A stretch of 20,000 bases of DNA. Origin: an uncultured virus (IMG/VR IMGVR_UViG_3300025771_003046). Its lineage: Duplodnaviria > Heunggongvirae > Uroviricota > Caudoviricetes. Position 1 is the first letter of the stretch; each line of letters opens with the position of its first letter. The position numbers and the translations under genes were made by a program. The notes beneath the pieces are model-generated. The model saw only the letters and a program-made list of their open reading frames with translations, made no database searches and had not been told where the DNA came from. Shown here piece by piece: positions 1 through 20,000 of this stretch. The DNA lies in IMG/VR virus record IMGVR_UViG_3300025771_003046; one strand, written 5' to 3'.

Positions 1-83
1 AAAACGACTCAATTAAGTGTCGATCAAATATCGATGCACCAATAAGATTAAGTTTAAGCTTGCTGGAGACTGAGGATGTCTAG
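1..83 (+). CDS. 3' end of a small phage structural/adaptor-like protein (5'-truncated by the window)
   Basis: Frame +3 is open from base 3 to TAG 81-83 and reads ...NDSIKCRSNIDAPIRLSLSLLETEDV*. It overlaps the next ATG (76) by 8 nt. The ending resembles the 'xDSIx...LxLSxLET' C-terminus I recall from small proteins that precede LSGRV-type genes in T4-like cyanophages (memory, not a search). Confidence 0.6.
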   Translation, partial: NDSIKCRSNIDAPIRLSLSLLETEDV

Positions 84-1251: not shown

Positions 1252-4200
1252 ATGTCTTTTATAAGCACGACAAGAGTAATAGAGAACAATCAAGAGGTTT
1301 TATTCGAAGGCCCATTAGATAAAGAAAGTAATGTACACACAGTTGCCGTACTGAATGAAGGTGTTTCGCCTAATTCTACAACCGATCCAATTAAAGTTAC
1401 ATTAAGTCTTTATGATGCATCTGAGCCCGCGACAAGACCTTTTGCGATACTAGAAGTTGCTCCAGGTACTGATGCACAGTATACTAAAGTTATAAACATA
1501 CGTCCTGGAGATCAACTAAGAGCCGAAACTGATGGTGGTGAAGTCACTATTATGATCGGCGCTTTCGTTGATGAAGATACTCTAGTAACAAGTATTTTTA
1601 ATATAACAGGGCAGTATGATCATACAGTTACATATCAACCATATGATGTTGCATATTATCTTGGGTCAACATATGTTAATACAACAGTAGACCAAACTGC
1701 TGTATATCCTACACAAGTTAATGGCGGTTGGACACCTTTAGGTTCTGGATTTAACGCATATGGTGAATTTGATCCACTTGTATTATATCCGCCGTTGTCT
1801 GTTGTTAAGTGGGCTAACAATGTTTATGTTACAGTTACAGGATCTCCTGTTGGAGTTTATCCGAATGATTATAACAGTACGTGGATTTCTTTTACATCAT
1901 TAACAAGTGACGAAATTCCAGATACGTCTGGTGTAAGTGCAAACGTTGCCGCAAGTATTACAATACTTAATAACAGATTAAACACACTTACTACAACTGA
2001 AGTCCCAGAAGCATCTGATGCCGATTTAGAAGCAGCATCAGGATTTGAAAATGCTTACTTTACTAGAGCTAGAGCTCGTGAATCTATTAGTGTAACAGGT
2101 GACTTAATTTATGATGTTAACACTGGTGTATTATCGGCTCAAACATTAACACAAGATGATGTTAATATATTCATTGACAATAGAGTGTCAAAATCATTTG
2201 TTGATGCATTAGGAGTTGATGCAGATACAGTTGATGGAATTGAAGGCACAGTATTAGCACGAACTGATATATCTCCAACATTTAGTCAAAACATTATAGT
2301 TTCAGGAGAAATGCGTGGCGACCTACGTGGTAATGTATTAGCTGACGATAGTAGTATTATAATCAATCATGCTACAAAAGAAATTAACGGACGTTTCGAA
2401 GGTACACTAATTGCAGCAAATAGTGATGTTATTTTAAATACAGGTATAGATGGTTTTGACGCTACGTTCACTGGTACTACATTTGGTGAACATAGAGGTG
2501 ATGTTTTATCAGACGATTCGAATGTAATCATTGATGCTAGTTCAGGATTAATAAGCGGTGACTTAGAAGGTAACGTCACTGCAACCTTTGGTGTGTCACG
2601 ATTTAATGATATTATTACTGATAACATTATTGTTCAAGAAGAATTACAAGTTGCTAACATTTTAGGTAACATTACGTCAACAGGTGTTAGTACATTTAAT
2701 AACGTTGATATTAATGGCGGTTATATTGATAACGCTGTTATAAACACAACTAATATTACAGGTACAACTATTGTAGGTACCTATATAGAAGCACAAACTG
2801 GTGGATTTAGAGGTGATATTCTATCTACAGGTACATCACGTTTCAACGACTTGATCGTTACAGGTGATCTAACATTTAACACATTAGAGGTACAAGCACT
2901 TGCTGACTTTAAATCTCTTGTAAATATCGACGGCGGACTTACAGTTGGCGGAACACTTAACGTTACTGGTGGAACTACATTTGGTAATATTAATGTTACT
3001 GGTGGACAAATTAGTGGCGTTACTTTGGGTAGTGGATCTTATCCAGTTGATATCGTTGCAGATGATGTAACAATTTTAAATTCATTTACTGCTACAGATG
3101 TTACTGCTGAATTTTCGACATTAATAGTTACAGACGAAATGACAGGTGATGTCAGCGGTAACTTGAGAGGAAATGTATTATCACAAGATGGTACAACTGT
3201 TATAATAGATGCATTTGCTGGAATTATCAGAGGCGACTTAGTCGGCGACACAGTAGGACAACATACTGGTAATGTTGACGGTAATGTTGTAGGTAATGTA
3301 ACAGGTAATGTTACTGCTGCTGCTGGACTATCGTCATTCTCTAGTATGAATGCACAAATTGGTGACATTGCTGCTCTTGAAGCAGGCTCATTAACAGTTA
3401 CTGGTGCAGCAAGTTTTACAGGTGATCTAACATTTGACACACTACAAATTGCTTCATTAGCAGTTAATAACACATTGACAGTTTCTGGTATTTCAACCCT
3501 TGGATCAGTAGACATCGGCGGCGGCACAATGGATGCTGTAACAATCGGTGGCAATGTGCCTGCAAGTGTTACTGGTACAATTTTTACCGGTGACAAAATG
3601 TTTGCTGATTTATTTACAGGTAGCCTAAAGGGTGTCGTAGAAGGATCAGTTGAAGGTGACTTATACGGTAATGTCCTAGGATTAGATAGTTCAATCGTTC
3701 TAAATACAAGTACTGCAAGAGCTACATTAGATGCTGATGTTACTGGACAGATTGATGCAACAGCAAATGGTGGCGGCGAAAGTAGATTTGATGATATAAC
3801 CATTACTGGTGTATTTTCGTTACAAGGCGGCGGCCAACTTACGGGTGATCTAACAGGTAATGTAGTAGGTGACGTTACAGGTGATGTATATGCAAGTAAC
3901 GGAGATAAGATTTTAGAAACAGGCAACGGAACAACTATTCCTGCAAAGTTAACAGGTAATGTAGAAGGCGAAGTATTAGGTACATTTACTGGTACAGCTT
4001 CTGGAGACTTCACAGGTGATGTATTTGCTTACGATTCAACTAAAATGCTTGATGCGTTTTCTAATATATTGAGGGGTGATTTAGTTGGTAATGTAAGTGG
4101 TAATGTTTTAGGCGATTTAACAGGTAATGTTAACACTACAGGAACTCAAAGCGATGGTTTCTTTAGAAACTTAACAGTTGAAGATACACTTACATTTCCA

Positions 4201-7200
4201 TCATTGAATATTTCGACAATTGATTCAGATAACATTGATGTTGATAATGCAATATTAGATGTTGTAACAATCGGCGCTGGTATAACTACTGGTACAATTG
4301 ACAACACTACTATTGGTGCTACAACCCCAAGAGGTGGTGTATTTACTACATTACAAGGTGCAATTATTGAAGCATCGAGTGAGTTTAGAGGTAACATTGT
4401 ATCATCAGGATCTTCTAGATTTAACGAGCTTATTGTTACTGGCGATTTTGTAGCAAACTTACGTGGTGATATTATTGCTGAAGATTCAAGTGTAATTGTT
4501 AACAATGCAACAAAAACATTTTATGGAACACTACAAGGTACAACAGTTGGAACACTACAAGGTAATGTTATAGCAACTTCAGGACTAAGCGAATTTAATA
4601 GTATAAACGTAGCACAAGAAATATCAGGTACATTAAGAGGCGATGTAGTTGCACCTGATAGTACATTGTTAATTGATATATCTAGTCAAAATATAAACGG
4701 TAACGTAATAACAGCAACAGGTGGATTTAGTGGAGAGATTACTGGAACACTAGTAGGAGACATTAAGGCTACTGGTGGCCAGGTTGTTTTAGATTCAGGT
4801 ACTGATGGCACAGATGCAACATTTGCAGGAAACGTAACAGGTAACGTTTTAAACACACTAGGTGAAACAGTACTAGATGCTAATGCTGAAAGACTTACAG
4901 GTACATTAGCAGGTAATGTATACGCAATAGACGGAATATCACAAATACTAGACTCAGGCACAGATGGTACTGATGCTGTATTTACTGGACAAGTAATCGG
5001 AGATGTTACTGGGAATGTCACAGCCTCGTCAGGTGTTTCTAACTTTAATAATATAGTTATTGCTAACGAAGCAGTAGGTAATTTTAAAGGTAATGTTCTT
5101 GCAGCAGATAGTTCTGTACTTGTTAATTATCTTGACTCGTCGATCACTGCTGCTACGATTACAGCAACAGGTAATTTTGTAGGTGACGTAATCGGTAATG
5201 TCGATACAAGAACAGTTGATGTTAACACAAGAAGTTATTTCCAAAACATCACAGTGTTGGGCGAAATTGACCTTAGTGGCGCATCAGGTAATATTACTGC
5301 TGATATTGAAGGTACTTTAAAAGGTAATGTTGTTTCTACAACAGGTGACCCTAATGCTGCTGATGTATTATTATTAGATGCTGCTGGTAGATCGATTCTT
5401 AATATGGCATCAATTAGTTCTAATGAATTTACTGGTGACGAATTTATTGGTGATTTCCTTGGAGATTTATATTCTGCAGACGGATCATTTAGAGTATTAG
5501 ATACAGGTGCAACAGGAAATCAAGCATATTACATCGGTGATATGAGAGGTAATGTACAAGGTAACTTACTCGGTGATGATTCGTCGGTAATTGTAAATTA
5601 TGTTTCGGGTGACATTAATGGTAGAGTAGTTAGTTCTTCTCAAGGATTTCAAGGTAAAATTGAAGATCCAAATAACAATATGTCCTCTTTGTATGACTTA
5701 ACAATTCGTAATAATTTATTTGTTGAAGGCACAACTACTACCGTTAATACTGATAACTTAGATATTAAAGATAATACAATTGTTTTAAACAAAGGACAAA
5801 GCGACGGAGTTACTGGTGTTGTACTAGGTACAGCAGGTATCCAAATTGACAGAGGCAACGGCGTAGATGCAAACCTACTTTGGACGGAAGACGGCGGCGC
5901 TGGCTATTGGGACTTTACAAATACTGCTCAAGTAAGAGGTGCATTTAGAGGTAATGTCACAGGTGATGTTTATAGTCCCTTTAATTCAGGAACTCCTATT
6001 CTAGACACAGGTACTGCAACTTTACCTGCTACATACATAGGTAATGTTGTAGGTGATATAGAAGGTAACGTAACTGTTGGCGCTGGCTTGTCTAGTTTCT
6101 TTAGCGTAAATGTTGAAGAAGAAATTGCTGGTAATTTACGTGGTAACGTATTAGCAAACGACAGTACTAAGATTATTGATTTTATTAACAGTAATATCTA
6201 TGGTGCTACAATTTCAGCAACTGCTGGATTTAGTGGTGATGTATTTGGTAATATTGATGCTAGAGGAGAAAGTTCTGCAAGTTATAGTTATTTCCAAAAC
6301 CTTAGTGTATCAGGTGACATCCAATTTGATAGTTTAAACATTGCTACACTTGAAGTAGGTACTGATTTAAACGTAGGTAACAATGTAGATGTTACTGGTC
6401 AAATTACAGCAGGTAGTGTAGATATTGCTGGTGGTGAAATAGACGGCACAATTATAGGTTCAAATGTTGCTTCTGCTGCTAGTGTAACTACTCTTACAGT
6501 AACCACTGGTGATATTAATGTTACTCAAGGTACTATTAATATTACACAAGGTAACTTGAGTGCTGATACTATTTTTGCTGTTACTGATTTTAGAGGTAAT
6601 TTAGTAGGTAATGTTACTGGTAGTTTATCAGGCGGCACTGTAACAGGTGACGTTTATGGTAACCTTTATCGCCCAGGAGGCACTACTCCTGTTCTTAATA
6701 CTGGTACAGGCGGAGTTGAACCTCGACTTTACGGTAATGTAACAGGTAATGTTACAGGTGACGTATTAGGTGATGTAACAGGTAACGTGCAAGGTGTATT
6801 ATACGGTAGTGTTATAAGTGAAGATAGCACAACAACTATTGTTAATGCTTCGTCTGGTTTAATTACAGGTGACATTAATTCATCAGGTACATCTACTTTT
6901 AATAATATTGTTGTTGAAGGCGCATTAGACTTTACAACATTTGCTCTTAACGAAATTACAGTTAACACACTTCTACAGGTTGACGGCACTGCTAACTTAA
7001 CAGTAGCAAATATATTTGCTGGTAATATTGATAACACTAGAATAGGCGTTACAACTCCTTCAACTATTAAGGGTACTGTTATTGAAGCAACTACTAAGTT
7101 TGTCGGTGACATTGCAGGTGAAGTAGATGGTAACGTTACTGGAGACTTAAGAGGTAATATAATAGGTGAAGATAGTTCAGTTATTGTAGATAATGATCTT

Positions 7201-10200
7201 AAAAGATTTACAGGTAATTTACTAGGTGATGTATATACAACCGATGGTGTGACATTATTTAATATTTTAGATTCAGGAACAGACGGCACAGATGCATCTA
7301 TAATTGCAGATGTTAAAACACCTTTAGGTGCAACTATCGTTGATACAAGTGCTGCTACTGTCACAGCAACAGGCGGCTTTACAGGCCAAATAGATGCGTC
7401 AGCTCCGGGCACTTCTCAATTCCATACAGTAACAGTTTCAAACAATTTAAGTGTTCCGGGAACTGTAAATGTTACTCAAACAGTTGAAGCATCAGGCGGT
7501 ATCGAAAATACTTCAATAGGTGCAGGAAATACAGAATCAACTGGTGCGTTTACATCTATTACTACAACTGGAGCCGTTACTGTTGGCGGAGACTTAATAG
7601 TACAAGGTAATACAGTTACGTTAAATACTTCGACATTAGACGTTGAAGATTTAAACATTACTGTTGCAAAAGGTGCTGCAAACGCTGCTGCTGCTGATGG
7701 CGCAGGCCTAACAGTTGATACAGCAGGAGCATGGATACAATATAAGAATCCAAGTGATCAATGGCGCTTTAATAAAGATATAGATTTAACAACAGAAAAC
7801 GTAAGACTATTAGGTAACATTACTTCAACTGGTGTTTCAAACTTTAGTGGTACAGCAAACTTTAGTGGCACAGTCGATATGGCGGGTGCAACGATCAATA
7901 ACTCAACTTTCCAAAATATGGATGTTGCTGCAACATCAGAGTTTAGCGGAAATATGACATTAGATACTGCTGCAAACTTTACAATGATAAATGCCGCTGG
8001 TACTCCAGTAACAGTATTTTCAATCGACGGATCAAATGGTAATACTACGATTTCACAGGGCGGACAGTTTGAGATATTAGATACGTTATCTGCTTCGATG
8101 TTTAGTGTAGACGGCGGCACAGGAAATACGTTAGTTACAGGTACACTTGGTGTAGACGGCATAGTTAGTATTAATAACACAACAGGATCTACTACTACAA
8201 CAACGGGTGCGCTAATTGTAGACGGCGGTGTCGGCATAGCAGAAAACTTATTCATAGGCGGCAACTTAGATGTTGCTGGCAATGCAGTTATTTCAGGTAA
8301 TTTAACTTTTGGTGATGCTGCAACTGATACAGTAGCATTTGGCGCTGATATTAATAGTAGTATCATTCCAGATATAAACAACACATACGATTTAGGTAGT
8401 TCGGCACAGGCTTGGAGAGAACTTTATCTTACACAAAATATTAACTTTAAAGGTGCAACAGGTGATAATGAAATTATTGTTCCAACAAATTTATTTGATG
8501 CTCTAAGTATTAAAGATGATGCTAATACAAGCATAATTGACGTTGAAACAACTACAGGTGCTCCGGTTGTAAAAATTAACCCGAATACAACCGTTGCTGG
8601 CACTCTTGATGTTACAGGTGAAACTACACTAGCAAGTGCAATTATCAGTGATGTAAATCCAAGTAGAGTTGTACTATCAGGCGGTAGTAAAGAAATAAGT
8701 TACAGTGATCAATTTACATATTCAGCAGGCGCTGGAGTAATTGATGTAGACATTACTGGTAGTTTAGCAGTTGACAACTTAACATTTGATGGAAATACAA
8801 TTTCAAGTACAGATTCGAATGGCGCTATTATACTTGATCCGCAAGGTTCTGGTGTAGTTACAGTAAATGCTAACACAACAATAAGTGGCACATTTACAAG
8901 CACAGGGCTTGCAAGCTTAGATAACGGTATTGATGTTAATGGTGCTGTGTTTACAGTTTCTAACACAGGTGCAGTTAATACTACATCAACATTAGATGTT
9001 ACTGGTCTTGCATCCCTTGATGGCGGAATTGACGTCGACGGTGCCTTTACTGTGGCAAATACAACAGGTAATATTACAACCTCAGGCACACTAGACATAA
9101 CAGGCACAACTACTTTAAGAAATACGGTCGGCATACAAGGTATTACAACTATAAGTAACGCTAATGATGCGTCTAATGCAACTTCAGGAGCATTAATAGT
9201 TTCAGGCGGCGCAGGAATTGCTAAAAAATTATTTGTTGCCGGCGACTTTGAAGTCGGCACAAATAGATTTAATGTAGCAGCAACTACAGGTGATACAACT
9301 GTAGCAGGTGACTTTACTGTTACTAGCGGAACAGCATTCTTAGACGGTGGCATTAATGTTGATAGTGGTGCATTTATTGTGGCAAATACAACAGGTGATA
9401 TTACAACCCTCGGTGATATTAGTATAGCAGATAGTAAGAAGTTACTAATTGGTACAGGAAACGATTTAGAAATCTTCCATGATGGTTCTAATTCTTTTAT
9501 TAAAGATGTTGGTGCAGGTAATTTAACAATAGCAACAGATGTACTAACACTTACAAAGGGTGACGGTACTAAAACAACAGCAGTATTAGATGCAGATGGT
9601 GCAACTGAACTTTATTACAATAATACAAAAAGATTTGAAACTACACTTGTAGGAGCAGATGTTACCGGAACATTCAACACTTCAGGACTTGCAACTTTAG
9701 ATTCGGCTGTAATATCAGATTTACCTGCTAACAGAATTGTATATACAAGTGGTGCAAATGGTAGACTAATTAGCACAGCAGATTTTGTAATAGACGGCAC
9801 ATCATTAAATGTAGGCTCAAATAATTTTGTTGTTACAGCAGCAACAGGTAACACTGCTATAGTTGGTACTTTAGACGTAACTGGCGAAACAACAGTAGGT
9901 AACTTAGTTGCTGACGATATAAAGTTAGGCGATGGCGAAAAGATACAATTTGGTAATGCACAAGATTTAGAAATTTATCACGACGGATCTAATAGTTATA
10001 TACATGAATCTGGTACAGGAGGTTTGATCCTAAGATCTGCCAACTCAATTCTTTTCCAAGACGCTACTAGTACAAAAACAGCCATGTCATTAACTGCTAA
10101 CGGTAGCCAGATATTATACCATAATGATGTTCAAAGATTTCAAACAACTGTCTCTGGCGCAGATATAACAGGTGATGTTGACATCTCTGGCACTTTAGAT

Positions 10201-13200: not shown

Positions 13201-16200
13201 TCTGCAAACTTTGAAATCTTTGATGCAGGTGTCGGTAGTAATTCTACATTCGCTGTTAATGGTGCAGACGGTAACACACAAATAGCAGGTACATTAGGTG
13301 TAGACGGCCTAGCATCGTTAAATGCAAGTTTGACTGTTACTGGACTTACAACAACTGATACAGCAGTAGTTAACAATACACTCAATGTAACTGGTGCAAC
13401 AACGCTAGACGGAACATTTGCTGTACAAAACGCAGGAGCAGACGTATTTACAGTCGCCGATGCAACAGGAAATACAGTAATTTCAGGAACACTTCAAGCA
13501 GGTAATACCACTGTAGCAGACGTAACTGCAACCGGAACTGGAACTATAACTGGTAACTTTGATGTAAACACTACTGCATTTACTGTTGCAGCAGCAACAG
13601 GTAACACTGATATACTTGGCGATTTAGCAGTTAACACAACGGCTCTTACAGTAGCAGCAGCAACAGGTAATACTACAGTAGGTGGAACACTTGATGTAGC
13701 AGGTGATACAAACTTTAACAGTACTACAGGAAGCACATTAAGTACTAATGGTGCAGTAGTAATTGATGGCGGTCTAGGTGTTGCAGAAAATATTAATTTT
13801 GGTGGTGTGTTAAAGACAACGACAGCAACAGCAAGTACAGATACAGTAACAGGATCAATTGTTACCGCAGGCGGCGTTGGTATAGCAGGCGCTTTAAATG
13901 TCGGTGGTGTAACACATATTTCTCAAACAGTAGATGCAACTTCAGCATCTGACGGTGCGTTGTTCGTAGACGGTGGCGTTGGTATTGCTAAGAAACTATT
14001 TGTTGGCACTGATTTAGATGTAACTGGCTCAGTACAAATTGATACAGATCTAAATGTTACTGGAAATACTGTAATAACAGGAAACCTAACAGTCAACGGC
14101 GCAAGCACAACGATTAACGCAGCAACACTAGATGTTGAAGATAAAGATATACGTGTTGCAAGTAATGTAGATACACTACTTGGAGCAAATAATGCAGGCT
14201 TAATAATTGGTAGTACTAATGTTGGTGATGTAGCAAATGGCGGTAATGCAGGCGAAACAAATGTTACATTTACATACAATGCTACAGACGATAGTTTAGA
14301 CAGTAATGTTGATATACAAGCCCCAACATTTATTGGTAATTTAACAGGCGATGTAACAGGAAGTGCAACTATAGGTGTTGGCAAAACTCTTGACGTAGAC
14401 GGAGCATTTAATGTTAATGCAAGTTCTGGTAATTTAGATAATGTAGTAATTGGTGGAGTTACTAGAGCAGATGCAAGTGTACATACGTTAACCACAAGAA
14501 ACATTAATGTAGACTCAGGATACGATGTTACGCTTACAAGTGGAGATGTTACAATTACTGCTGGTGACTTTGTTGCAACAACAGGTAATATTAGTGCAAC
14601 TTCAGGAACTATATCTGGTGATATATTTGTTGCAGGAACAGAATTTAGAGGCGATTTAACAACTGTCGACGGTGGTACTGGTGTTAACTTATTTGAGTCA
14701 ACAGGCGTAGCAGTAAGCACAGGTAACATCACAACTACAACAGGCGACTTTACGAGTACAAGCGGAGACTTTACTACAGGCACAGGAAATATTTCAACAA
14801 GTAGTGGCGATATTACTACTACAACCGGTGATATTAATGGACAAATTATTACCGCTAACACTAAGGTTATAGGACAAATAGGTACTGATGCAAGTACAGC
14901 ATCAGACATGAATGATGCGTTTGTTTCAACACTTTATTCTAATACAACTATAACATCAAGTGGTAATACAGATGTAGGAGGCAATCTTACAGTAACAGGT
15001 ACTTCTAACTTTGACGATGCTGTAACTATTTCAAATAATTTAACAATTACTGGACCAGGAGGCGTTGATGCGCAAGGCGATCCAAATTTATCTACAGCGA
15101 CATTCCAAAACATTGTTGTTACAGGATCATTTACAGTTGATACTCTAACAATTGATGACTTTACGGTTGGTGATGAATTAGCTGTGTTAGGTGATACTAC
15201 GCTATCAGGTAACTTGACAGTTAACAGTGGTGTAACAACATTAAGCTCAGTTGATATTGCAGGCGGCGCAATGGATGGTGTTACAATTGGTGGCGACGGT
15301 GTAACACCTGCTGCAAATATCACAGGCGCTGCGTTAACGGGTACGTCCTTGACTACTACAACAGGTAATGTAACACTAAACAGTGGTAACATAGTTGTTA
15401 CACAGGGTAATATTACAACTACAGCAGGTGAGATAAGATCACCAGTTGGCGGCTTTGTAGGGCAAATTGATGCTACTGCAACAGGTACATCAAGTTTTGA
15501 CAACGTTTTAGTAAATGATGATTTAACTGTAAACGGTAAAGTATTCTCAGTAGCAAGTGCTGCAAGTGGATTTGTTGGAGATTTATATTCTAACAATTCA
15601 GGAGGCACACCAATAAAAATTCTACAAGCAGGTACTACATTAGGCACTGCAATGTATACTGGTAATGTTACTGGTATTGTAGGTGATTCAGCAAACAGAA
15701 ATACTGGTCATTTTAGTACATTAGATGCAACACAATCTAATTTAGCAACTGTTGATATAGATGGTGGTACAATCGACGGAGTTACATTTACAGCAGGTAC
15801 ACTAGTAGACACACCGATTGGACAAACAGGAACACCGCAAAACGCTACAGTAAGTAATCTTGTAAGTAATACAATTAGAGTTAACAGCAGCACTGCAAAT
15901 ACTATAGACGGTGTTACAATTGGTGATACACAGCGTAGACCAGGTAACTTTACTACTTTAGATGCAAACACTAGTATTACAGTAGGTTCAGTAGTAGGTA
16001 GTATAAACTCAACACCGATCGGTGATAGTATTGCATCAACAATAACAGGAACTACAATTACAGCGTCTACAAGATTTGAAGGTGTACTACAAGGCGATAT
16101 ACAATCAACATCGGGTGGTGTTGGATTACCTGCAGGTACATTATTAATAGATTCAAGTACTAGAAATATTTCTAATATTGTCGATTTTACTTCGGAAACT

Positions 16201-19200
16201 GTGGAAGCAACAACCATCACAGCTACCCAAACAACAAACGGTTTCCAAGGTGATTTAACCGGTGATGTAATAGGACAAATTGGTACATCAACACTTGCAG
16301 ATAGAAACAATGCATTCTTCACCAATGTAGACATATTAGGCGATGTTGATATAGATGGCGACATTACACTTGCAGCAACACATTCGATTACTGGTATAAT
16401 AGACGGATTAGCAGGTTCAGATATAACAGGTGCGTTTACACTTGAAACAGGTCAAACAGCAGACTTGTCAGGTGGTACACTAACACTTGCTAATGATCAA
16501 ATTTCAGGTGATGCAATTGAAGGCGGCACAATAGGTAACATTACTATAAGTAATCTTACTTCGCCTAATATAACTATTACTGGCGGGACACTCCAAGGTG
16601 TTGATGCAACAAGTTTTGACATCGACGGCGGCACCATTATTAACACTTCAATTGGACAATCAGGTTCTGCACAGAACATCAAGGGTGCTACAATCGAGTC
16701 TACTACCGGATTTGTAGGACAAATTAATTCTACTGGCGGTGGCGGTGGTACATCAAACTTCGATATAATTACTGTTGCAGGTACAAGTACATTTACAGGA
16801 AATGCAACATTTGGTAATTTAAGCGGTGCGCTTACAGGGTCATTTACTGGCGGCGCAACTATTACAAGTGGTACATTTAGTAATATACAAATTGCAAGTT
16901 CTACACAAATTAATTCTTCAGCATTTATTGGCCCATTATCTGGTGATGTTACCGGCGGCGGCACAGGCACGGTTAGTACCTTTAATAGAATAAACGTACA
17001 AGGTGGTCCAGCAGAAACTTCCCAAATATCAAACTTAACTGTAGGTACGTTTGCAACTAACGCTGCAACAATTACTGGTGGTAATATCACAAACACTACT
17101 ATCGGTGGTGCAACTGGTACAGGTAGTTTCCCAGGATACTTTAGTTTGATAGAAGCAACAGGCGCTATTACAGCAGGAACACAGTTTATAGGAGATATGA
17201 ATAATCCTAATACTGTTAACCAAGATGATTCATCGGCTGACTTTACACAAGGTTATTTTACTGATCTACGAGTTAAGAACTTTGAAACTGATACTATTAT
17301 AATTAACAGTGACCAAGAATTTAGTAATGTTTTGATTACTGGTGATTTAACAGTAAACGAAGATGTGCTAATAAAAGGCGATTTAGAGACTGAACAAAAC
17401 TTTATTACAATTAACAAAAACGAAACAGGTAATGCGGGTATTAGTGGCGCTGGTAACGCAGGTATAATATTTGAACGTGGTAACGGTGTTGGCATACAAG
17501 ATGCAAGTCTTATATTCAGCGAAAGCGGCGGCAATCCTGAATATGAATTTAGTCAATTTAAAGTTGTAGCATCAGAATTTGAAGCACCTTTATTTTCTGG
17601 AAACATTACCGCAGCCTTAGGTACCTCTACATTTAATAATATTACTGTAAATAACTCTGCTAACTTAGGAAACAGCGTTACTATCGCTGGCGGCAATATA
17701 GACAATACTGTAATAGGTAATGGAACTCAAGCAAGCATCGACGGTACAACAATTAAAGCACATGTTGAATTCCAAGGAGACTTAGACACTACTAATGGTG
17801 TTAATGGAAATATTGATACTATCACACTGGATGCAACTGGACTTATTACTGCACGAGCAGGCGTTGATGTAACTGGTGGAACAATTGACGGCGAAGGAAG
17901 ATTTACTACAGGTACAACTATTGACGCTGGTACACATATTAGAAATACACCGATTGGTGTCGATGTAGCCGGTATAAGTGGTAGAGCAGTAGGTTACTTT
18001 AATGCTTTAGAAGCTACTACAATTATTAGTACACTGGGTATAACTGGCAATATTACTGGAGATGTAACAGGTAGTATTGATGATAGAAATACAATCGGTG
18101 AAGTTCCTTTAAATCCGCCTTCATTGACAGAAAACTTAAATATGAATCTATCGCAATTTGACAGAGTAAGTGTACTAGGTCATCTTACAATGGGTACAGA
18201 TACATATATTAAAGCTGTTAACCTAGATGTTTCTGGTATCTTTAATGTTAACGATTTAGATATCGGTGCTACACTTGATGTTGCTGGTAACTTTACTGTA
18301 GGTAGTGGAACACCTAAAAAATTAGATGTCAATGCTGCTACAGGTGCAATGACACATAATGGTGCATTTACAACGTCTGGAACTGCAACATTTGATGGTG
18401 ACATTAATGCAAATGCTAATGTAACAATAGGCAGCGATGCAACAGACGAACTTATTATAAATGCTGTAATCGATAGCGACATATTAACTAAAACTGATGG
18501 CGCTTATGATATTGGTACAGTTTCAACACGTTGGGGACATGTATATGCTGATAATGCAACATTTACAGATGATGTTGCTATAGGTGGAAATTTAACAGTT
18601 ACAGGATCAGTTACCCAGACTAACGTTGACCAAATCAACATTGCAGATAACATAATTGTTCTTAATGGACAAGAATCATCAAATGTAATTTCAGCAAGTA
18701 CTGCTGGTATAGAGATTAGTAGAGGCACCGGAAGTAATGCATCGTTCTTGTATGATGAAGGTTTAAGTTCCTGGACACTTACAGGTGCAACAAGTAAATT
18801 AACTGTTGATGAAGTTAGAGCTGACATTGAAGCCACTGACGGAACAACTATAGTAGATATTTCATCAAAAACAATTGATATGGTTGGTGTTGATACAGAT
18901 ACGTTAACAGTAAATCTAGGTGCAACGATAGGTACAACATTAGCAGTTAGCGGACTATCTACACTTGCACAAGCAAAAGTACAAGACTTAGCACAAGATC
19001 ATATTCCATTAGCAGGACTTGACGGTAGACTTAACACAAATGCAAACTTTAGATTTGACGGTGTTGATTTTGATATAGGTGCTGCTGGTTCAGAAACATT
19101 TAAAGTAGCAGTTGCATCAGGAAACACTGATATACAAGGTACACTTTTTGTAGATAAGCAAACTACAATAAAAGGCAATAATCTAGGTGCAAGTAGTACA

Positions 19201-20000
19201 ACAACAGGTGCAGTAGTAGTTCAAGGTGGTATTGGTATATCTGAAAATATACATGCAGGAGGCACTTTGACGTTAACTGGACTTGCATCACTAGCAACTG
19301 GCATAAATGTTAATAATGATTTTGTAGTAGATGCAGACGGCAATACTGACTTGTCAAGTGGTGCAACACTAACAGTTGACGGTGAAGTAAACTTTAATGG
19401 CGGTCTTGTAATGGACACTGACAGGTTTACTGTAGCAAACGGTTCCGGTAATGTCGCAACGGCTGGCACACTTGATGTAAGTGGGAATACTACACTAACA
19501 TCTGTTACTACATCAGGAATGGCTTCATTAAATGCAGGCATTGAAGTAGACACAACGAAGTTTACTGTAGACGGCGGCACAGGTGCTGTTGTTACACAAA
19601 GTACTTTAACAGTTGACGGCATCACTACGCTTAATTCAGATCTATCTGTAACAGGAAGTAATGATATAAGAATAATTGACGCTCTTACTGCAAATGTATT
19701 TGAAGTAAACGGAACAACAGGCGCAACACTGATTACAGGTAACCTTACAATGGACGGATCTGTAGGCGCAGGTAATCTTGACATAGGTGGCAACTTTACA
19801 GTAGCAAATGCAACAGGTAATACAGACATAACAGGTACATTAGATGTAACTGGTGATACTACAGTAGATGTGTTTAGTGCAGGTACAAGCACATTAGGTA
19901 CAACTTCTATTACTGGTACATCTCTAACAGTAGGTTCTGACTTTACTGTAACAGGAACAAATGGTGTAACTGAAATAGGTGGTATGTTAAGTGCAGATGG
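1252..20000 (+). CDS. Giant (>6,249 aa, 3'-truncated) repetitive tail-fibre-like / virion fibre protein
   Basis: ATG 1252 with GGGAG SD at 1237-1241. Frame +1 has no stop through base 20000 (begins MSFISTTRVIENNQEVLFEGP, ends ...GVTEIGGMLSAD), with strong A/T bias at third codon positions. Fibre-type motifs: AYFTRARARESISVTGDLIYDVNTGVLS, DADTVDG, IDNTTIGATTP, GxLTVxGxxTTVN...DxxIxL...AGI, STTTGALxVxGGVGI, DLEIYHDGSNSYI, YDLGSSxxxWR. No signal peptide is evident. The CDS itself is near-certain; the fibre function is inferred. Confidence 0.92.
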   Translation, partial: MSFISTTRVIENNQEVLFEGPLDKESNVHTVAVLNEGVSPNSTTDPIKVTLSLYDASEPATRPFAILEVAPGTDAQYTKVINIRPGDQLRAETDGGEVTIMIGAFVDEDTLVTSIFNITGQYDHTVTYQPYDVAYYLGSTYVNTTVDQTAVYPTQVNGGWTPLGSGFNAYGEFDPLVLYPPLSVVKWANNVYVTVTGSPVGVYPNDYNSTWISFTSLTSDEIPDTSGVSANVAASITILNNRLNTLTTTEVPEASDADLEAASGFENAYFTRARARESISVTGDLIYDVNTGVLSAQTLTQDDVNIFIDNRVSKSFVDALGVDADTVDGIEGTVLARTDISPTFSQNIIVSGEMRGDLRGNVLADDSSIIINHATKEINGRFEGTLIAANSDVILNTGIDGFDATFTGTTFGEHRGDVLSDDSNVIIDASSGLISGDLEGNVTATFGVSRFNDIITDNIIVQEELQVANILGNITSTGVSTFNNVDINGGYIDNAVINTTNITGTTIVGTYIEAQTGGFRGDILSTGTSRFNDLIVTGDLTFNTLEVQALADFKSLVNIDGGLTVGGTLNVTGGTTFGNINVTGGQISGVTLGSGSYPVDIVADDVTILNSFTATDVTAEFSTLIVTDEMTGDVSGNLRGNVLSQDGTTVIIDAFAGIIRGDLVGDTVGQHTGNVDGNVVGNVTGNVTAAAGLSSFSSMNAQIGDIAALEAGSLTVTGAASFTGDLTFDTLQIASLAVNNTLTVSGISTLGSVDIGGGTMDAVTIGGNVPASVTGTIFTGDKMFADLFTGSLKGVVEGSVEGDLYGNVLGLDSSIVLNTSTARATLDADVTGQIDATANGGGESRFDDITITGVFSLQGGGQLTGDLTGNVVGDVTGDVYASNGDKILETGNGTTIPAKLTGNVEGEVLGTFTGTASGDFTGDVFAYDSTKMLDAFSNILRGDLVGNVSGNVLGDLTGNVNTTGTQSDGFFRNLTVEDTLTFPSLNISTIDSDNIDVDNAILDVVTIGAGITTGTIDNTTIGATTPRGGVFTTLQGAIIEASSEFRGNIVSSGSSRFNELIVTGDFVANLRGDIIAEDSSVIVNNATKTFYGTLQGTTVGTLQGNVIATSGLSEFNSINVAQEISGTLRGDVVAPDSTLLIDISSQNINGNVITATGGFSGEITGTLVGDIKATGGQVVLDSGTDGTDATFAGNVTGNVLNTLGETVLDANAERLTGTLAGNVYAIDGISQILDSGTDGTDAVFTGQVIGDVTGNVTASSGVSNFNNIVIANEAVGNFKGNVLAADSSVLVNYLDSSITAATITATGNFVGDVIGNVDTRTVDVNTRSYFQNITVLGEIDLSGASGNITADIEGTLKGNVVSTTGDPNAADVLLLDAAGRSILNMASISSNEFTGDEFIGDFLGDLYSADGSFRVLDTGATGNQAYYIGDMRGNVQGNLLGDDSSVIVNYVSGDINGRVVSSSQGFQGKIEDPNNNMSSLYDLTIRNNLFVEGTTTTVNTDNLDIKDNTIVLNKGQSDGVTGVVLGTAGIQIDRGNGVDANLLWTEDGGAGYWDFTNTAQVRGAFRGNVTGDVYSPFNSGTPILDTGTATLPATYIGNVVGDIEGNVTVGAGLSSFFSVNVEEEIAGNLRGNVLANDSTKIIDFINSNIYGATISATAGFSGDVFGNIDARGESSASYSYFQNLSVSGDIQFDSLNIATLEVGTDLNVGNNVDVTGQITAGSVDIAGGEIDGTIIGSNVASAASVTTLTVTTGDINVTQGTINITQGNLSADTIFAVTDFRGNLVGNVTGSLSGGTVTGDVYGNLYRPGGTTPVLNTGTGGVEPRLYGNVTGNVTGDVLGDVTGNVQGVLYGSVISEDSTTTIVNASSGLITGDINSSGTSTFNNIVVEGALDFTTFALNEITVNTLLQVDGTANLTVANIFAGNIDNTRIGVTTPSTIKGTVIEATTKFVGDIAGEVDGNVTGDLRGNIIGEDSSVIVDNDLKRFTGNLLGDVYTTDGVTLFNILDSGTDGTDASIIADVKTPLGATIVDTSAATVTATGGFTGQIDASAPGTSQFHTVTVSNNLSVPGTVNVTQTVEASGGIENTSIGAGNTESTGAFTSITTTGAVTVGGDLIVQGNTVTLNTSTLDVEDLNITVAKGAANAAAADGAGLTVDTAGAWIQYKNPSDQWRFNKDIDLTTENVRLLGNITSTGVSNFSGTANFSGTVDMAGATINNSTFQNMDVAATSEFSGNMTLDTAANFTMINAAGTPVTVFSIDGSNGNTTISQGGQFEILDTLSASMFSVDGGTGNTLVTGTLGVDGIVSINNTTGSTTTTTGALIVDGGVGIAENLFIGGNLDVAGNAVISGNLTFGDAATDTVAFGADINSSIIPDINNTYDLGSSAQAWRELYLTQNINFKGATGDNEIIVPTNLFDALSIKDDANTSIIDVETTTGAPVVKINPNTTVAGTLDVTGETTLASAIISDVNPSRVVLSGGSKEISYSDQFTYSAGAGVIDVDITGSLAVDNLTFDGNTISSTDSNGAIILDPQGSGVVTVNANTTISGTFTSTGLASLDNGIDVNGAVFTVSNTGAVNTTSTLDVTGLASLDGGIDVDGAFTVANTTGNITTSGTLDITGTTTLRNTVGIQGITTISNANDASNATSGALIVSGGAGIAKKLFVAGDFEVGTNRFNVAATTGDTTVAGDFTVTSGTAFLDGGINVDSGAFIVANTTGDITTLGDISIADSKKLLIGTGNDLEIFHDGSNSFIKDVGAGNLTIATDVLTLTKGDGTKTTAVLDADGATELYYNNTKRFETTLVGADVTGTFNTSGLATLDSAVISDLPANRIVYTSGANGRLISTADFVIDGTSLNVGSNNFVVTAATGNTAIVGTLDVTGETTVGNLVADDIKLGDGEKIQFGNAQDLEIYHDGSNSYIHESGTGGLILRSANSILFQDATSTKTAMSLTANGSQILYHNDVQRFQTTVSGADITGDVDISGTLDVDGNFQVGTSRFNVEATTGNTQIDGTLTADGLTTLNGGITADGGVFTVADGTGNIATSGTLNVTGDTTLSTLTATSDVTVQGDLTVEGNLTTVNATEINVSDKNITLGGTTTTLSALNNSGITIGGTLGAGSNPALTYTYTGVSPNQVERFNLNRELIVDKVHGDIKGNVYASDDTSIILNAGTNGNDAIFKGDVYSTTDTLIIDSGASIDDATFYGNIDLRTETNYGNTPSTGTTSYFNNLDVAGTLSMANASIGTLSGNLVGDIYASNGTSLILDNGTNGTDASFQGSIKNDNGTVIIQNGSTGVAATFTGKLVGDVDSSGISYFNNMYANVINAFLDGDISGSVLGEDSVMMLDAGARTLSVTDVQTSTITASSYLSGDVRGDIYNNNGTQKILETGGTATDAAIFTGRVDASNAINTTSNFNNVDATGIFTGVLGAVGNTANAFVNDLTVDSVATFTGVVNALTSAVNINSVNIDGGTIDGTVIGAATPAAITGTTVTANTGFVGNITGNITGDLDARGLGGTTFIDDLVMGPGTNAAIDTATITTLNASTLVLTNLALSGDLDVLTGTGTFQNLEVTAGGNIVGLATLGTSASPVASSVITTIDVSAGDIVGLSTLGTSASPVIAADIDTAVIDDVTSVTVRADNFTITNTGDSAHKFTGPLEGNITSAGTSTFTGTVSLSGATVVLADNQLSGDKIDGGVIGNADLLGNGTSNTISGYDITVTGALDLTGATVTYDNDSISGDKVSGGTIDAANITGGAGKTLDGYDITVGAGRTLTVNGSTSVATLAASALVELDGGFNVNDDFVVDVDGNTRLNAAANFEIWNAAGTPVKVFDIVGSTGATTIANTLDVVGPVSITTGTGSTSTSTGSLTVTGGVGISENAFVGGDLDVAANAQLSGTLDVDGVTNINNTLTVDSLASLDGGIAVSDGAAGDAFTVAVTTGNVVTTGTLDVTGLSSLDGGIDVNGSNYTVSAAGAVTQASTLDVSGDVTLLQSANFEIFDAGVGSNSTFAVNGADGNTQIAGTLGVDGLASLNASLTVTGLTTTDTAVVNNTLNVTGATTLDGTFAVQNAGADVFTVADATGNTVISGTLQAGNTTVADVTATGTGTITGNFDVNTTAFTVAAATGNTDILGDLAVNTTALTVAAATGNTTVGGTLDVAGDTNFNSTTGSTLSTNGAVVIDGGLGVAENINFGGVLKTTTATASTDTVTGSIVTAGGVGIAGALNVGGVTHISQTVDATSASDGALFVDGGVGIAKKLFVGTDLDVTGSVQIDTDLNVTGNTVITGNLTVNGASTTINAATLDVEDKDIRVASNVDTLLGANNAGLIIGSTNVGDVANGGNAGETNVTFTYNATDDSLDSNVDIQAPTFIGNLTGDVTGSATIGVGKTLDVDGAFNVNASSGNLDNVVIGGVTRADASVHTLTTRNINVDSGYDVTLTSGDVTITAGDFVATTGNISATSGTISGDIFVAGTEFRGDLTTVDGGTGVNLFESTGVAVSTGNITTTTGDFTSTSGDFTTGTGNISTSSGDITTTTGDINGQIITANTKVIGQIGTDASTASDMNDAFVSTLYSNTTITSSGNTDVGGNLTVTGTSNFDDAVTISNNLTITGPGGVDAQGDPNLSTATFQNIVVTGSFTVDTLTIDDFTVGDELAVLGDTTLSGNLTVNSGVTTLSSVDIAGGAMDGVTIGGDGVTPAANITGAALTGTSLTTTTGNVTLNSGNIVVTQGNITTTAGEIRSPVGGFVGQIDATATGTSSFDNVLVNDDLTVNGKVFSVASAASGFVGDLYSNNSGGTPIKILQAGTTLGTAMYTGNVTGIVGDSANRNTGHFSTLDATQSNLATVDIDGGTIDGVTFTAGTLVDTPIGQTGTPQNATVSNLVSNTIRVNSSTANTIDGVTIGDTQRRPGNFTTLDANTSITVGSVVGSINSTPIGDSIASTITGTTITASTRFEGVLQGDIQSTSGGVGLPAGTLLIDSSTRNISNIVDFTSETVEATTITATQTTNGFQGDLTGDVIGQIGTSTLADRNNAFFTNVDILGDVDIDGDITLAATHSITGIIDGLAGSDITGAFTLETGQTADLSGGTLTLANDQISGDAIEGGTIGNITISNLTSPNITITGGTLQGVDATSFDIDGGTIINTSIGQSGSAQNIKGATIESTTGFVGQINSTGGGGGTSNFDIITVAGTSTFTGNATFGNLSGALTGSFTGGATITSGTFSNIQIASSTQINSSAFIGPLSGDVTGGGTGTVSTFNRINVQGGPAETSQISNLTVGTFATNAATITGGNITNTTIGGATGTGSFPGYFSLIEATGAITAGTQFIGDMNNPNTVNQDDSSADFTQGYFTDLRVKNFETDTIIINSDQEFSNVLITGDLTVNEDVLIKGDLETEQNFITINKNETGNAGISGAGNAGIIFERGNGVGIQDASLIFSESGGNPEYEFSQFKVVASEFEAPLFSGNITAALGTSTFNNITVNNSANLGNSVTIAGGNIDNTVIGNGTQASIDGTTIKAHVEFQGDLDTTNGVNGNIDTITLDATGLITARAGVDVTGGTIDGEGRFTTGTTIDAGTHIRNTPIGVDVAGISGRAVGYFNALEATTIISTLGITGNITGDVTGSIDDRNTIGEVPLNPPSLTENLNMNLSQFDRVSVLGHLTMGTDTYIKAVNLDVSGIFNVNDLDIGATLDVAGNFTVGSGTPKKLDVNAATGAMTHNGAFTTSGTATFDGDINANANVTIGSDATDELIINAVIDSDILTKTDGAYDIGTVSTRWGHVYADNATFTDDVAIGGNLTVTGSVTQTNVDQINIADNIIVLNGQESSNVISASTAGIEISRGTGSNASFLYDEGLSSWTLTGATSKLTVDEVRADIEATDGTTIVDISSKTIDMVGVDTDTLTVNLGATIGTTLAVSGLSTLAQAKVQDLAQDHIPLAGLDGRLNTNANFRFDGVDFDIGAAGSETFKVAVASGNTDIQGTLFVDKQTTIKGNNLGASSTTTGAVVVQGGIGISENIHAGGTLTLTGLASLATGINVNNDFVVDADGNTDLSSGATLTVDGEVNFNGGLVMDTDRFTVANGSGNVATAGTLDVSGNTTLTSVTTSGMASLNAGIEVDTTKFTVDGGTGAVVTQSTLTVDGITTLNSDLSVTGSNDIRIIDALTANVFEVNGTTGATLITGNLTMDGSVGAGNLDIGGNFTVANATGNTDITGTLDVTGDTTVDVFSAGTSTLGTTSITGTSLTVGSDFTVTGTNGVTEIGGMLSAD
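1597..1890 (+). repeat. Two tandem 51-aa aromatic-rich repeats resembling CBM5/12 (ChtBD3-like) small beta modules, inside the giant ORF
   Basis: FNITGQYDHTVTYQPYDVAYYLGSTYVN..VYP....GW (from 1597) aligns with FNAYGEFDPLVLYPPLSVVKWANNVYVT..VYP....TW (from 1750); both the F and the W anchors are 153 nt apart. Confidence 0.6.
2311..7560 (+). repeat. Shaft block type A of the giant ORF: 4-residue G[DN][VLI]x runs, G[DN]VxxxDSSx[IL][IV][DN] and LDxGTDGTDAxFxG repeats
   Basis: About 12 DSS-type copies (near 2329, 2497, 3169, 3667, 4015, 4465, 4639, 5089, 5560, 6142, 6805, 7153). GTDGTDA copies near 4789, 4948 and 7267. GNVxGNVxG runs at 3268-3315 and 6733-6810. Confidence 0.8.
7960..10430 (+). 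repeat. Shaft block type B of the giant ORF: ~30-aa LDGGIxV..FTVAxxTGNxxxxGTLDVTG repeats with inserted modules
   Basis: Examples are ASLDGGIDVDGAFTVANTTGNITTSGTLDITG (9010-9105) and TLNGGITADGGVFTVADGTGNIATSGTLNVTG (10300-10395). The same repeat type recurs at about 12600-14070 and 18900-20000. Confidence 0.8.
13732..14022 (+). repeat. Three tandem 34-aa STxxxxGAxxxxGGVGIAxxLxVGG repeats
   Basis: Copies start at 13732, 13834 and 13936 (102-nt period); single copies lie at 8188, 9169, 12805 and 19189. Confidence 0.8.
14722..14841 (+). repeat. Heptapeptide tandem repeat G[DN][IF]xTxx
   Basis: GNITTTT GDFTSTS GDFTTGT GNISTSS GDITTTT GDING; shorter runs near 6508, 14542 and 15364. Confidence 0.75.

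Follow-up and report, generated by a model that had tools for sequence, protein, structure and literature searches.

The 20,000-nt stretch of DNA analyzed here (referred to throughout as the window) belongs to an uncultured virus of the class Caudoviricetes, IMG/VR record IMGVR_UViG_3300025771_003046, and nearly all of it is taken up by the 5′ portion of a single giant gene. On the full record, this gene encodes a protein of 9,511 amino acids (aa) that is probably a structural fiber of a jumbo myovirus with T4-type core genes: a three-chain rod that is anchored to the virion by its N-terminus, is capped by a knob, makes contact with the host, and arose by gene fusion.

In the arrangement proposed, three parallel chains would intertwine to give one very long fiber, as suggested by a trimer model of the distal 322 aa. 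A clade-specific N-terminal domain of ~250 aa would fasten the fiber to the virion, with a baseplate or tail site being the most likely. The ~9,000-aa shaft, a mosaic of diverged modules that includes ~15 copies of a tryptophan-containing “W-module”, would adopt an extended form, and the last 120 aa would fold into a β-sandwich knob that trimerizes around an invariant LEGPE...VY.RG stretch and caps the distal end. Such a fiber would lengthen the reach of the particle and be the first part of it to meet the host, probably through glycans. The W-modules, rather than the knob, could carry the binding sites. With a T4-like rise per residue, its length would be on the order of 0.3–0.5 µm: a rise of ~0.055 nm per residue, which we take to be that of the T4 long tail fiber, would give roughly 0.5 µm, and knobby modules would shorten it. 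The initial annotation had arrived at roughly 300–400 nm or more from T4 gp34, whose 1,289 aa form the ~70-nm proximal half of that fiber. In the lineage of the window, a proximal fiber gene would have lost its S74 chaperone domain and stop codon, and would then have fused with a distal fiber gene.

The giant gene and its close orthologs

The initial annotation, made from the letters of the window, described a single uninterrupted plus-strand frame that covers 94% of the window and is still open at its edge, and this was borne out. The open reading frame (ORF) at 1252..19998 contains 6,249 codons without a stop, or 93.7% of the window. Given its base composition, the gene should have stops at 7.2% of its codons by chance, which makes the probability of an open run of 6,249 codons ~1e-203. 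The window corresponds to G000:C1:50081-70080 of a linear virus record of 109,900 bp, for which CheckV estimates a completeness of ~30%. The stop codon that the initial annotation had expected beyond its 6,249 aa is located on the full record, where the complete ORF (C1:51332-79867, 28,536 nt) ends with TAA after 9,511 aa. The gene thus represents 26% of the record, and would represent ~8% of the genome if the CheckV estimate holds. Its product has a mass of 954 kDa, an isoelectric point (pI) of 4.05, and a single cysteine, and is rich in threonine (16.1%), glycine (13.8%), valine (9.0%), alanine (8.5%), serine (8.1%), asparagine (8.1%), and aspartate (7.8%). This composition fits the glycine-punctuated repeats described earlier, for which a β-strand nature is putative.

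A frame of this kind could be suspected of having been produced by misassembly, or of being open without function as a result of repeat composition. The composition is indeed repetitive, and the gene contains 16 minus-strand ORF entries of at least 100 aa. One antisense frame is nearly open, with 12.6 stops per 1,000 codons versus 70–122 in the other off-frames, and the long minus-strand ORFs are by-products of composition. Moreover, short-read contigs break within the zone of tandem repeats, and a misassembled repeat was what the initial annotation had named as a result that would overturn it. Three kinds of evidence bear on this suspicion, namely the repeats themselves, orthologs in other records, and sequencing runs.

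At the DNA level, the giant gene is essentially unique sequence. When the 28.5-kb gene was aligned with itself by blastn, 31 repeat pairs emerged, just one of which exceeds 80% identity over more than 100 bp. The pair in question (432 bp at 91%) reflects a tandem 396-bp (132-aa) unit at C1:69869-70696, which straddles the end of the window. The next best pair spans 225 bp at 79%.

The N-terminus of the protein recurs at 98–100% identity in four other virus records (G001–G004). Three of these (G002–G004) are long enough to contain the whole gene, and each has an uninterrupted frame of 9,270 aa that is 95.5–97.5% identical to that of the source record. All differences in length are in-frame: 132 aa (aa 6215–6346, the tandem unit, of which the extra copy is missing from G002–G004), 108 aa (aa 7388–7495), and 1 aa. 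The Nei–Gojobori ratio of nonsynonymous to synonymous divergence (dN/dS) is 0.124–0.147 in five of six pairs, with 560–1,097 synonymous differences; the sixth pair is nearly identical. When the source record was compared with G003 in blocks of 1,000 codons, dN/dS was 0.059–0.199 in all ten blocks. More diverged relatives have likewise kept frames of 6,200–8,782 aa. A Megablast search of isolate phages with the whole window gave no match, and the giant protein was not among the results of a protein search limited to sequences of 3,436–10,936 aa.

A 5.5-kb stretch over both variable segments was also sought in sequencing runs. It is present in 20 of the 24 rows listed, from 17 studies, and eight rows possibly represent the origin of the DNA itself. 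Fourteen DNA runs, labeled as marsh, salt marsh, or freshwater metagenomes, contain at least 0.97 of the sampled words, and six metatranscriptome runs contain 0.55–0.87. These labels give no indication of the dilute-water setting that had been suggested for the fiber. Contigs of four runs were aligned to the stretch. Runs X4 and X9 each yielded a 5,066-nt contig that crosses the 108-aa segment without a gap, and an X9 contig bridges the junction between the two tandem copies. A contig from X15, an RNA library, skips exactly 396 nt, which represents either a one-copy form or a collapse by the assembler (107 nt fit both sides). Contigs from RNA libraries contain the sequence, but DNA carry-over is possible, and they are hence no proof of transcription.

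Taken together, the orthologs, the dN/dS values, the near-absence of identical repeats, and the run contigs establish that the giant gene is real, intact, and under purifying selection, and that the number of repeat units varies between close strains. The idea of a misassembled repeat fails on the same grounds, and next to no credence can be given to an artefact or a chance open frame. The in-frame gain or loss of 108-aa and 132-aa units in near-identical strains also illustrates how fiber length would be tuned.

Protein modules and a putative gene fusion

The last 120 aa of the protein constitute a fiber-end domain, K(S/N)FxIDHPTK...LEGPENGVYVRG..., that matches PHROG 17490 (E 1.1e-37) and PHROG 28536 (E 7.7e-36), both of which are without an assigned function. 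A HMMER search with the last 200 aa returned 6,787 cluster representatives at E ≤1e-3, including 805 at E ≤1e-30. In 143 of the 150 matches listed, which are proteins of 185–3,429 aa, the best stretch was the end domain, located no more than five residues from the C-terminus; in the remaining seven, it was the NLYFT repeat described below. Seven end-domain matches were checked with Pfam, and two of them (P0057 and P0076) carry Phage-tail_3/GpJ domains. An alignment of 41 sequences (A1) has 25 invariant columns, including LEGPE and VY.RG, and the giant protein possesses all 25. Its match to the pattern (K-F-I-H-P ... LEGPE ... VY.RG ... W ... Y..R.D...E) is full-length and lies at the extreme C-terminus. 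In BFVD, 22 matches to the end domain were found at E ≤1e-3, all of them phage proteins, including collagen-repeat fibers and a minor tail protein; the nearest Atlas clusters are viral in 30 of 30 cases and have no Pfam family. The end domain corresponds to no Pfam or NCBIfam family and is a candidate for a new curated one. A search with the last 462 aa found no internal copies of the knob, and the full domain occurred solely at the end in G002–G004. The same 462 aa matched nothing below E 0.7 among PDB sequences.

When the C-terminal 322 aa were modeled as a monomer with AlphaFold2, the last 110 aa formed a β-sandwich with a predicted local distance difference test (pLDDT) score of ~90, while residues 1–208 scored <50. 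An exhaustive VIA fold search placed the C-terminal domain of the cyanophage Pam1 tailspike (7eea) at the top, with Z 8.1 and a root-mean-square deviation of 2.1 over 68 aa. H-type lectins, the end of the K64-1 depolymerase, AP22 gp53, the Oekolampad receptor-binding protein, and the foot of the R2 pyocin fiber followed at Z 5–6.2. A Z below 8 in this search can reflect a common arrangement, so the likeness in fold is a resemblance and no proof.

As three copies, the same 322 aa behaved differently. The interface score ipSAE was 0.87, 0.88, and 0.88, versus 0.00 for the best of three controls, with a partner pLDDT of at least 88 and agreement between runs in at least 94% of contacts. In calibration, of 30 proteins whose solved structure is a pair of one chain, 20 attained the mark used for ipSAE, compared with one of 23 whose solved structure is a single chain. 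About 1,440 contacts extend over the whole length of the model, and the tightest pairs fall in the invariant 225–236 stretch, which puts the conserved motif at the modeled trimer interface. A monomer that is disordered and a trimer that is confidently predicted are what an intertwined fiber would show. Prediction of a trimer had been among the checks suggested at the outset, and the last 322 aa pass it (ipSAE 0.88 versus 0.00).

The shaft is a mosaic of diverged repeat modules, with counts of 13 for “FRGD/N”, 14 for “DINGGxIDG”, 17 for “TGNTxIxGxL”, and nine for “GGxGI”. The W-module is 88 aa long and is present in ~15 full copies that a hidden Markov model (HMM) built from the protein's own copies recognizes at E 7e-13 to 6e-29. 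It has the form TTVNTxxLxIxDNxIxLNxG...AGIxIDRG...LxWxE...W (alignment A2, 14 copies). Another motif, NAYFT...RARESISV...YDxxTG, is found near the N-terminal domain (Table 1) and recurs at aa 9098 and 9340. The part of the protein most like the tail fibers of marine cyano-, pelagi-, and roseophages, as judged from sequence, is aa 2700–3000, which contains two related modules with motifs at aa 2743 and 2910 and shows 32–44% identity (tblastn) to annotated tail fiber or structural proteins of S-CAM9, P-SSP6, HTVC142P, and CRP-3. Four pieces of the giant protein match phrog_697 (“structural protein”) at E 1e-10 to 5e-22, and phrog_30742 and phrog_9851 (“tail fiber protein”) match weakly. Pfam searches with eight pieces over the whole chain returned only sub-threshold noise (Bactofilin, E 0.007; Tudor, E 0.08), NCBIfam gave no match for the protein, and PDB sequence searches with aa 2250–3150 and with the W-module profile returned nothing below E 0.7.

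Among proteins of 3,436–10,936 aa, only four share the central modules of the giant, the longest having 6,417 aa. That protein, P0154, is encoded on a 401-kb contig, probably of a huge phage, and consists almost wholly of ~130–170-aa repeats (VESVRFTGDQIG... and FTVDxxSGNT...). It was considered as a relative of the giant and dropped, as an “FTVDxxxGNT” repeat is all that the two have in common. P0163 and P0164 (1,500–1,800 aa, on contigs of 300–356 kb) were similarly dropped as normal-sized orthologs, as the 45-aa NLYFT...RAR repeat is the only feature in common. For instance, BLASTP against P0164 (1,755 aa) aligned the motif at aa 255–330 many times over.

The N-terminal domain (aa 1–250) is the presumed end for attachment to the virion. 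Its only relatives are a fragment from the same lineage that is 100% identical (P0157), three truncated metagenomic proteins at 53–55% identity (P0158–P0160), and three more distant virus records at 51–57% identity (G005–G007). Residues 1–420 had no match among proteins of 3,436–10,936 aa. Fold matches to its low-confidence model are generic β-sandwiches with Z ≤7.9, and two matches that resemble the CBM5/12 domain of chitinases (Z 6.1–7.0) are short, at 43–47 aa, and serve as leads only. An Atlas search with the N-terminus gave scores of ≤0.80, with T4_gp9_10_N at 0.76 (carried by 42% of the cluster members) as a weak lead. By inspection, the N-terminus (MSFISTTRVIENNQE) has no features of a signal peptide or an anchor.

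The three distant records that share the N-terminal domain differ in how the remainder is encoded. In G006, there is one ORF of 8,782 aa. G005 has an ORF1 of 6,200 aa that is joined through TAAATG to an ORF2 of 2,243 aa, while G007 has an ORF1a of 1,198 aa and an ORF1b of 4,842 aa (out of frame with each other and overlapping by 19 nt), followed by TAAATG and an ORF2 of 2,893 aa. The split of the first gene in G007 could be due to gene decay, to programmed frameshifting, or to faulty assembly. A Peptidase_S74 domain is located at the ends of G005 ORF1, G006, and G007 ORF1b (E 3e-12 to 7e-16; 46.9–58.6 bits versus a cut-off of 22) and is also carried by two other matches to the giant, P0155 and P0156. 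In the giant itself, the eight-piece Pfam search found no Peptidase_S74 (PF13884). The knob at the end of the giant is also found, at 54% identity, at the end of G007 ORF2.

BLASTP alignments place these genes along the giant in order. Residues 1–6106 of G005 ORF1 align best with residues 1–6570 of the giant (2,235 bits; next best, 1,162), G007 ORF1b aligns with residues 1478–6192, and residues 19–2892 of G007 ORF2 align best with residues 6198–9511 (936 bits; next best, 560). The presumed junction zone (aa ~6,190–6,570) also contains the recent 132-aa duplication. Given that the giant is collinear with two genes of its relatives, it is most parsimoniously explained as a fusion of a proximal (~6,000 aa) and a distal (~2,900 aa, with the knob) fiber gene. 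The direction, fusion and not fission, is inferred from parsimony over the three relatives. If this is correct, then the two gene products of the relatives would belong to one end-to-end fiber, and the locus would be a natural “Rosetta-stone” fusion that argues for two giant genes forming one fiber in those phages.

Phage type, gene neighborhood, and feature coordinates

The source of the window is an uncultured T4-core jumbo myovirus. Pfam searches of the record identified Portal_T4, a Peptidase_S77 prohead protease, Gp23, T4_baseplate, T4-gp15_tss, sheath, Terminase_6N/6C, gp32, RecA/UvsX, and gp46/47-like proteins, with gp21 also being counted among the T4-core genes. PHROG searches added a gp55-like late sigma factor (E 7.6e-81), baseplate hub, sheath, tube, and an Ad2 head–tail adaptor. 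The capsid, terminase, and gp55 genes for which the initial annotation had proposed to look are thus all on the record, in the form of gp23, gp17, and a gp55-like late sigma factor. The major capsid protein (MCP) is 67–72% identical to those of jumbo phages of 287–469 kb, namely Sinorhizobium phage Phosso, Vibrio phage 2.275.O, Pseudomonas phage PA5oct, and Erwinia phage pEa_SNUABM_19.

In Vibrio phage 2.275.O, the gene order is the same up to the MCP gene, which is followed downstream by tail-collar and short-tail-fiber genes. At the corresponding post-MCP position, between the capsid and neck genes, the record has a 54-kb fiber cluster (C1:27882-81919) with ORFs of 1,511, 454, 4,958, 193, 215, 147, 9,511, and 683 aa. 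The giant gene is situated directly before the neck genes (gp15-like and Ad2 adaptor-like), between these and the MCP gene and thus within the structural block. The 4,958-aa ORF, a second giant, matches the cyanophage giant fiber PHROGs 5342, 4527, 701, and 17885 (E 1e-51 to 9e-81), and also matches features of isolate cyanophages that are annotated as short tail fiber or gp7.

Two small neighbors flank the giant gene. Upstream, the 147-aa ORF shares motifs with the giant protein and is in the same frame, and its junction with the giant gene consists of TAA, three bases, and ATG. It matches positions 1551–1656 of phrog_697 (“structural protein”, E 2.9e-6), and its N-terminus resembles those of other small fiber proteins such as P0108. 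A similar small frame that ends in TAA is kept upstream of the gene in G001–G007. This ORF may be an adaptor, a separate small fiber, or a remnant of a former fiber N-terminus. Downstream, the C-terminal third of the 683-aa ORF matches several PHROGs that are either labeled tail fiber or functionally unassigned (E 1e-13 to 8e-19), and the ORF may encode a further fiber or tip protein. Read-through of stop codons to join the 147-aa, giant, and 683-aa ORFs was considered and dropped, since the giant and 683-aa ORFs meet at an abutting TAA–ATG. With such abutting pairs, which also separate ORF1 and ORF2 in G005 and G007, the next gene is in frame by construction. A scan for promoters and terminators at the 3′ end of the giant gene performed no better than on shuffled sequences. 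The coordinates of all these features are collected in Table 1.

Table 1. Features of the window, its surroundings, and a distant relative. Plain positions are those of the window; other positions refer to the record or locus named.
Feature	Position	Strand	Basis or remark
215-aa ORF, just upstream of the fiber genes	76..723	+	No Pfam, PHROG, or NCBIfam match
147-aa ORF with fiber motifs	805..1248	+	MANNKKFVVKNG... N-terminus, FQGDV...DSS, NHTTDDLDEGTQNLYFT
GGGAG, Shine–Dalgarno-like motif	1237..1241	+	10 nt before the ATG at 1252; resemblance to consensus, read from the sequence
Giant fiber gene (probable), codons 1–6,249 of 9,511	1252..20000	+	Runs on to C1:79867, 9,787 nt past the window
N-terminal domain (aa 1–250), presumed virion-attachment end	1252..2001	+	All-β in a low-confidence model
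ENAYFTRARARESISV...YDVNTG motif region (aa 255–330)	2014..2241	+	One copy of a ~45-aa repeat common in phage fiber proteins
W-module copy 1 (aa 1473–1565)	5668..5946	+	Own-copy HMM, E 6e-29
W-module copy 2 (aa 2099–2183)	7546..7800	+	Own-copy HMM, E 2e-24
Two LEI(F/Y)HDGSNS(F/Y)I modules (aa 2700–3000)	9349..10251	+	tblastn
W-module copy (aa 3051–3139)	10402..10668	+	Own-copy HMM, E 8e-20
W-module copy (aa 4263–4344)	14038..14283	+	Own-copy HMM, E 1.5e-16
W-module copy (aa 5356–5443)	17317..17580	+	Own-copy HMM, E 5e-20
W-module copy (aa 5765–5853)	18544..18810	+	Own-copy HMM, E 1.5e-28
Start of the tandem 396-bp repeat and of the presumed fusion zone (aa ~6,190–6,570)	19789..20000	+	Self-blastn; collinearity
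Last 130 aa of the giant protein	L009:9397-9786
683-aa ORF	G000:C1:79868-81919 (L009:9790-11838)		ATG abuts the TAA of the giant gene (TAAATG)
4,958-aa ORF, second giant	G000:C1:33952-48828 (L008:952-15825)		2.5 kb upstream of the giant gene; PHROG profiles
G007 ORF1a and ORF1b	L045:828-4424, 4406-18934		Stops in the first codons

Two further regions of the record are of separate interest. A run of sugar-modifying genes, an unusual set for a phage, is located at G000:C1:102780-109898 (L010:12880-19995) and encodes a cytidylyltransferase/mannose-6-phosphate isomerase fusion, a GT8 glycosyltransferase, a pyruvyl transferase, a GT29 sialyltransferase-like protein, and several methyltransferases; a sulfotransferase gene is found farther upstream. 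Their products might act on the host surface or on the virion. In addition, a porphobilinogen deaminase gene (hemC; Pfam E 6e-66) is present at G000:C1:10168-11007 (L006:10168-11004), between the gp46-like and baseplate genes, and may serve as an auxiliary metabolic gene for tetrapyrrole synthesis.

Alternative readings and comparison with known fibers

As for the nature of the product, the initial annotation had called it a fiber-like protein that could be a tail or head fiber. Its modules and end domain, which are common to tail fiber and structural proteins, agree with that description, as does the trimer model. Several results nonetheless weigh against a trimeric, N-anchored, knob-capped fiber that arose by fusion. 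The trimer run, with an alignment of our own and three copies, falls outside the calibration of the tool and covers 3% of the chain. Foldseek comparison of the C-terminal model with PDB gave nothing at E ≤1e-3, and the Z of 8.1 for the knob is within the range typical of models without a clear match. Conservation of the knob, at up to 71% identity between unrelated fibers, is unusual for a receptor-binding tip and fits a role in assembly, trimerization, or folding better than one in receptor specificity. The presumed attachment domain is hard to place by similarity: its first 350 aa had no tblastn match in isolate phages, its first 420 aa matched nothing below E 0.7 among PDB sequences, the domain had no match in Pfam or NCBIfam, and its AlphaFold2 model, from a six-row alignment, has a mean pLDDT of 49 (about 50–70 over residues 15–215). 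As for the fusion, the alignments involve low-complexity repeats at 25–30% identity that place the junction only to aa ~6,190–6,570, and the G007 gene, given its 5′ stops and frame change, may be decaying or badly assembled. Finally, the window lacks the T4 late-promoter consensus (TATAAATA), of which 3.0 instances would be expected.

Other roles for the protein can be weighed against the same body of evidence. It could be a virion fiber of a different sort, that is, a hair- or whisker-like appendage on the tail sheath, neck, or head, perhaps stored wrapped around the particle. Electron microscopy has revealed such appendages on some jumbo phages, and the MCP puts the phage among Rak2/PA5oct-like jumbo myoviruses. 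Phage CBB, a member of that group, has 119-nm hairs along its tail, the gene for which its authors were unable to identify (PMC5259590). A review (PMC13282480) mentions fibers on the head of PTm1, hairs on the tail of Y3, and, for phage G, a coiled structure that surrounds the tail. The location of the giant gene directly before the neck genes would suit such an appendage, as would an N-terminal domain that resembles no known baseplate-binding domain among isolate phages and PDB sequences. The N-terminus is, however, likewise without a tie to head, neck, or sheath proteins, other products of the cluster are similar to cyanophage proteins of the “short tail fiber”, “tail fiber”, and gp7-like kinds, and the end domain is found on GpJ-type central tail fibers. 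An appendage of this kind is accordingly judged unlikely. It could also be asked whether the chain is translated as a precursor and then cleaved into several shorter fiber segments, such that no half-micrometer covalent fiber is ever formed. Its relatives do encode the same material as two genes, the first of which ends in the self-cleaving S74 chaperone, and the DLG...RW..Y motif that precedes the terminal knob (aa 9378) also occurs at aa 2387 and 5760, where it could mark former gene ends. The chance of this seems slight, though, as the Pfam search found neither S74 nor another protease domain in the chain, no internal copy of the knob was found, and purifying selection extends even across the presumed junction.

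The protein might, alternatively, be no part of the virion but a fibrous product made in, or exported from, the infected cell, with cell aggregation or receptor masking as examples of its role. Its high acidity (pI 4.05) and its repeats recall some surface adhesins, and its presence in the virion is presumed from sequence and gene context, which also weakens the preferred fiber reading. Conversely, a cellular context with a secretion signal or anchor, which the initial annotation had named as the mark of an adhesin, did not materialize. The context is viral, Pfam found no adhesin or secretion family (autotransporter, RTX, or similar), inspection of the sequence revealed no signal peptide or anchor, the gene is inside the structural block, and all BFVD and Atlas neighbors of the end domain are phage or viral. 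A non-virion role is thus highly improbable, and a structural fiber of the virion continues to be the reading preferred here.

A more ambitious version of the fiber reading is possible, if rather doubtful. The 954-kDa fused chain might act as a half-micrometer covalent “fishing line”, several times the length of the particle, along which ~15 W-module knobs serve as extra binding sites, and the LEGPE knob might be a chaperone-free trimerization nucleus that has replaced S74. If true, this would be the longest known viral fiber protein, and the knob would be a new general domain for fiber assembly. The literature searched yielded no account of a phage protein this large, which does not show that none exists. 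In any case, a very common fiber-end domain (6,787 representatives) that has no Pfam or NCBIfam model is brought to attention and can be tested as a trimerization module. The cost of a 54-kb cluster under purifying selection, with genes of 6,200–9,511 aa in several lineages, argues that very long fibers matter to these abundant jumbo phages of marshes and estuaries.

Comparison with known systems helps to define what is distinctive about the giant. The T4 long tail fiber (gp34–gp35–gp36–gp37) is composed of proximal and distal trimeric rods that are joined end to end and has a distal tip. The rod of the relatives is similarly split into a proximal and a distal gene, whereas in the giant both rods would be one polypeptide. 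On the T4 lengths that we assume, its chain is ~3.7 times as long as gp34, gp36, and gp37 together. No Pfam match to the gp34–gp37 sequence family was obtained at E ≤0.01 (E ≤1 for the C-terminal third), within the reach of HMMER. A second group for comparison is that of fibers with a C-terminal S74 intramolecular chaperone (PF13884), of which K1F endosialidase and T5 pb1 are examples. The nearest relatives of the giant (G005 ORF1, G006, and G007 ORF1b) belong here by virtue of their S74 ends, while the giant lacks S74 and ends in the IDHP...LEGPENGVYVRG knob instead.

The knob, for its part, can be compared with the small distal β-sandwiches on trimeric fibers or spikes such as the Pam1 tailspike (7eea), K64-1 depolymerase S2-4 (9k4a), AP22 gp53 (4mtm), and the R2 pyocin fiber (6cu2, 6cl6). 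Its matches to these solved domains have Z values from 8.1 down to 5.4 over 65–79 aligned residues, with 6–14% identity. Tips are typically variable, whereas the knob of the giant is highly conserved.

In size and composition, a parallel is provided by the giant “short tail fiber” and virion structural proteins of T4-like cyanophages (PHROGs 5342, 4527, and 701), which are also very large, rich in threonine, glycine, and valine, modular, and encoded in the structural block of T4-core myoviruses. Synechococcus phage S-WAM2 gp224, with a coding sequence of 14,280 nt and 4,759 aa, is a member of this kind from an isolate. The giant has no match to PHROGs 5342, 4527, or 701 at E ≤0.01, is twice the length of the S-WAM2 protein and ~1.5 times that of the longest PHROG profile seen (6,136 positions), and has a different N-terminal domain. 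PHROG 697 (2,079 positions) is the only family to match several parts of the giant, as well as the 147-aa ORF, but these matches are partial (~80–230 aa) and reflect common repeat modules with no full-length relationship. Giant modular phage fibers are already known, and what is new here is the extreme length, the apparent fusion of two genes without the usual chaperone, the clade-specific domain that would serve as an anchor, and the ubiquitous, unannotated end domain.

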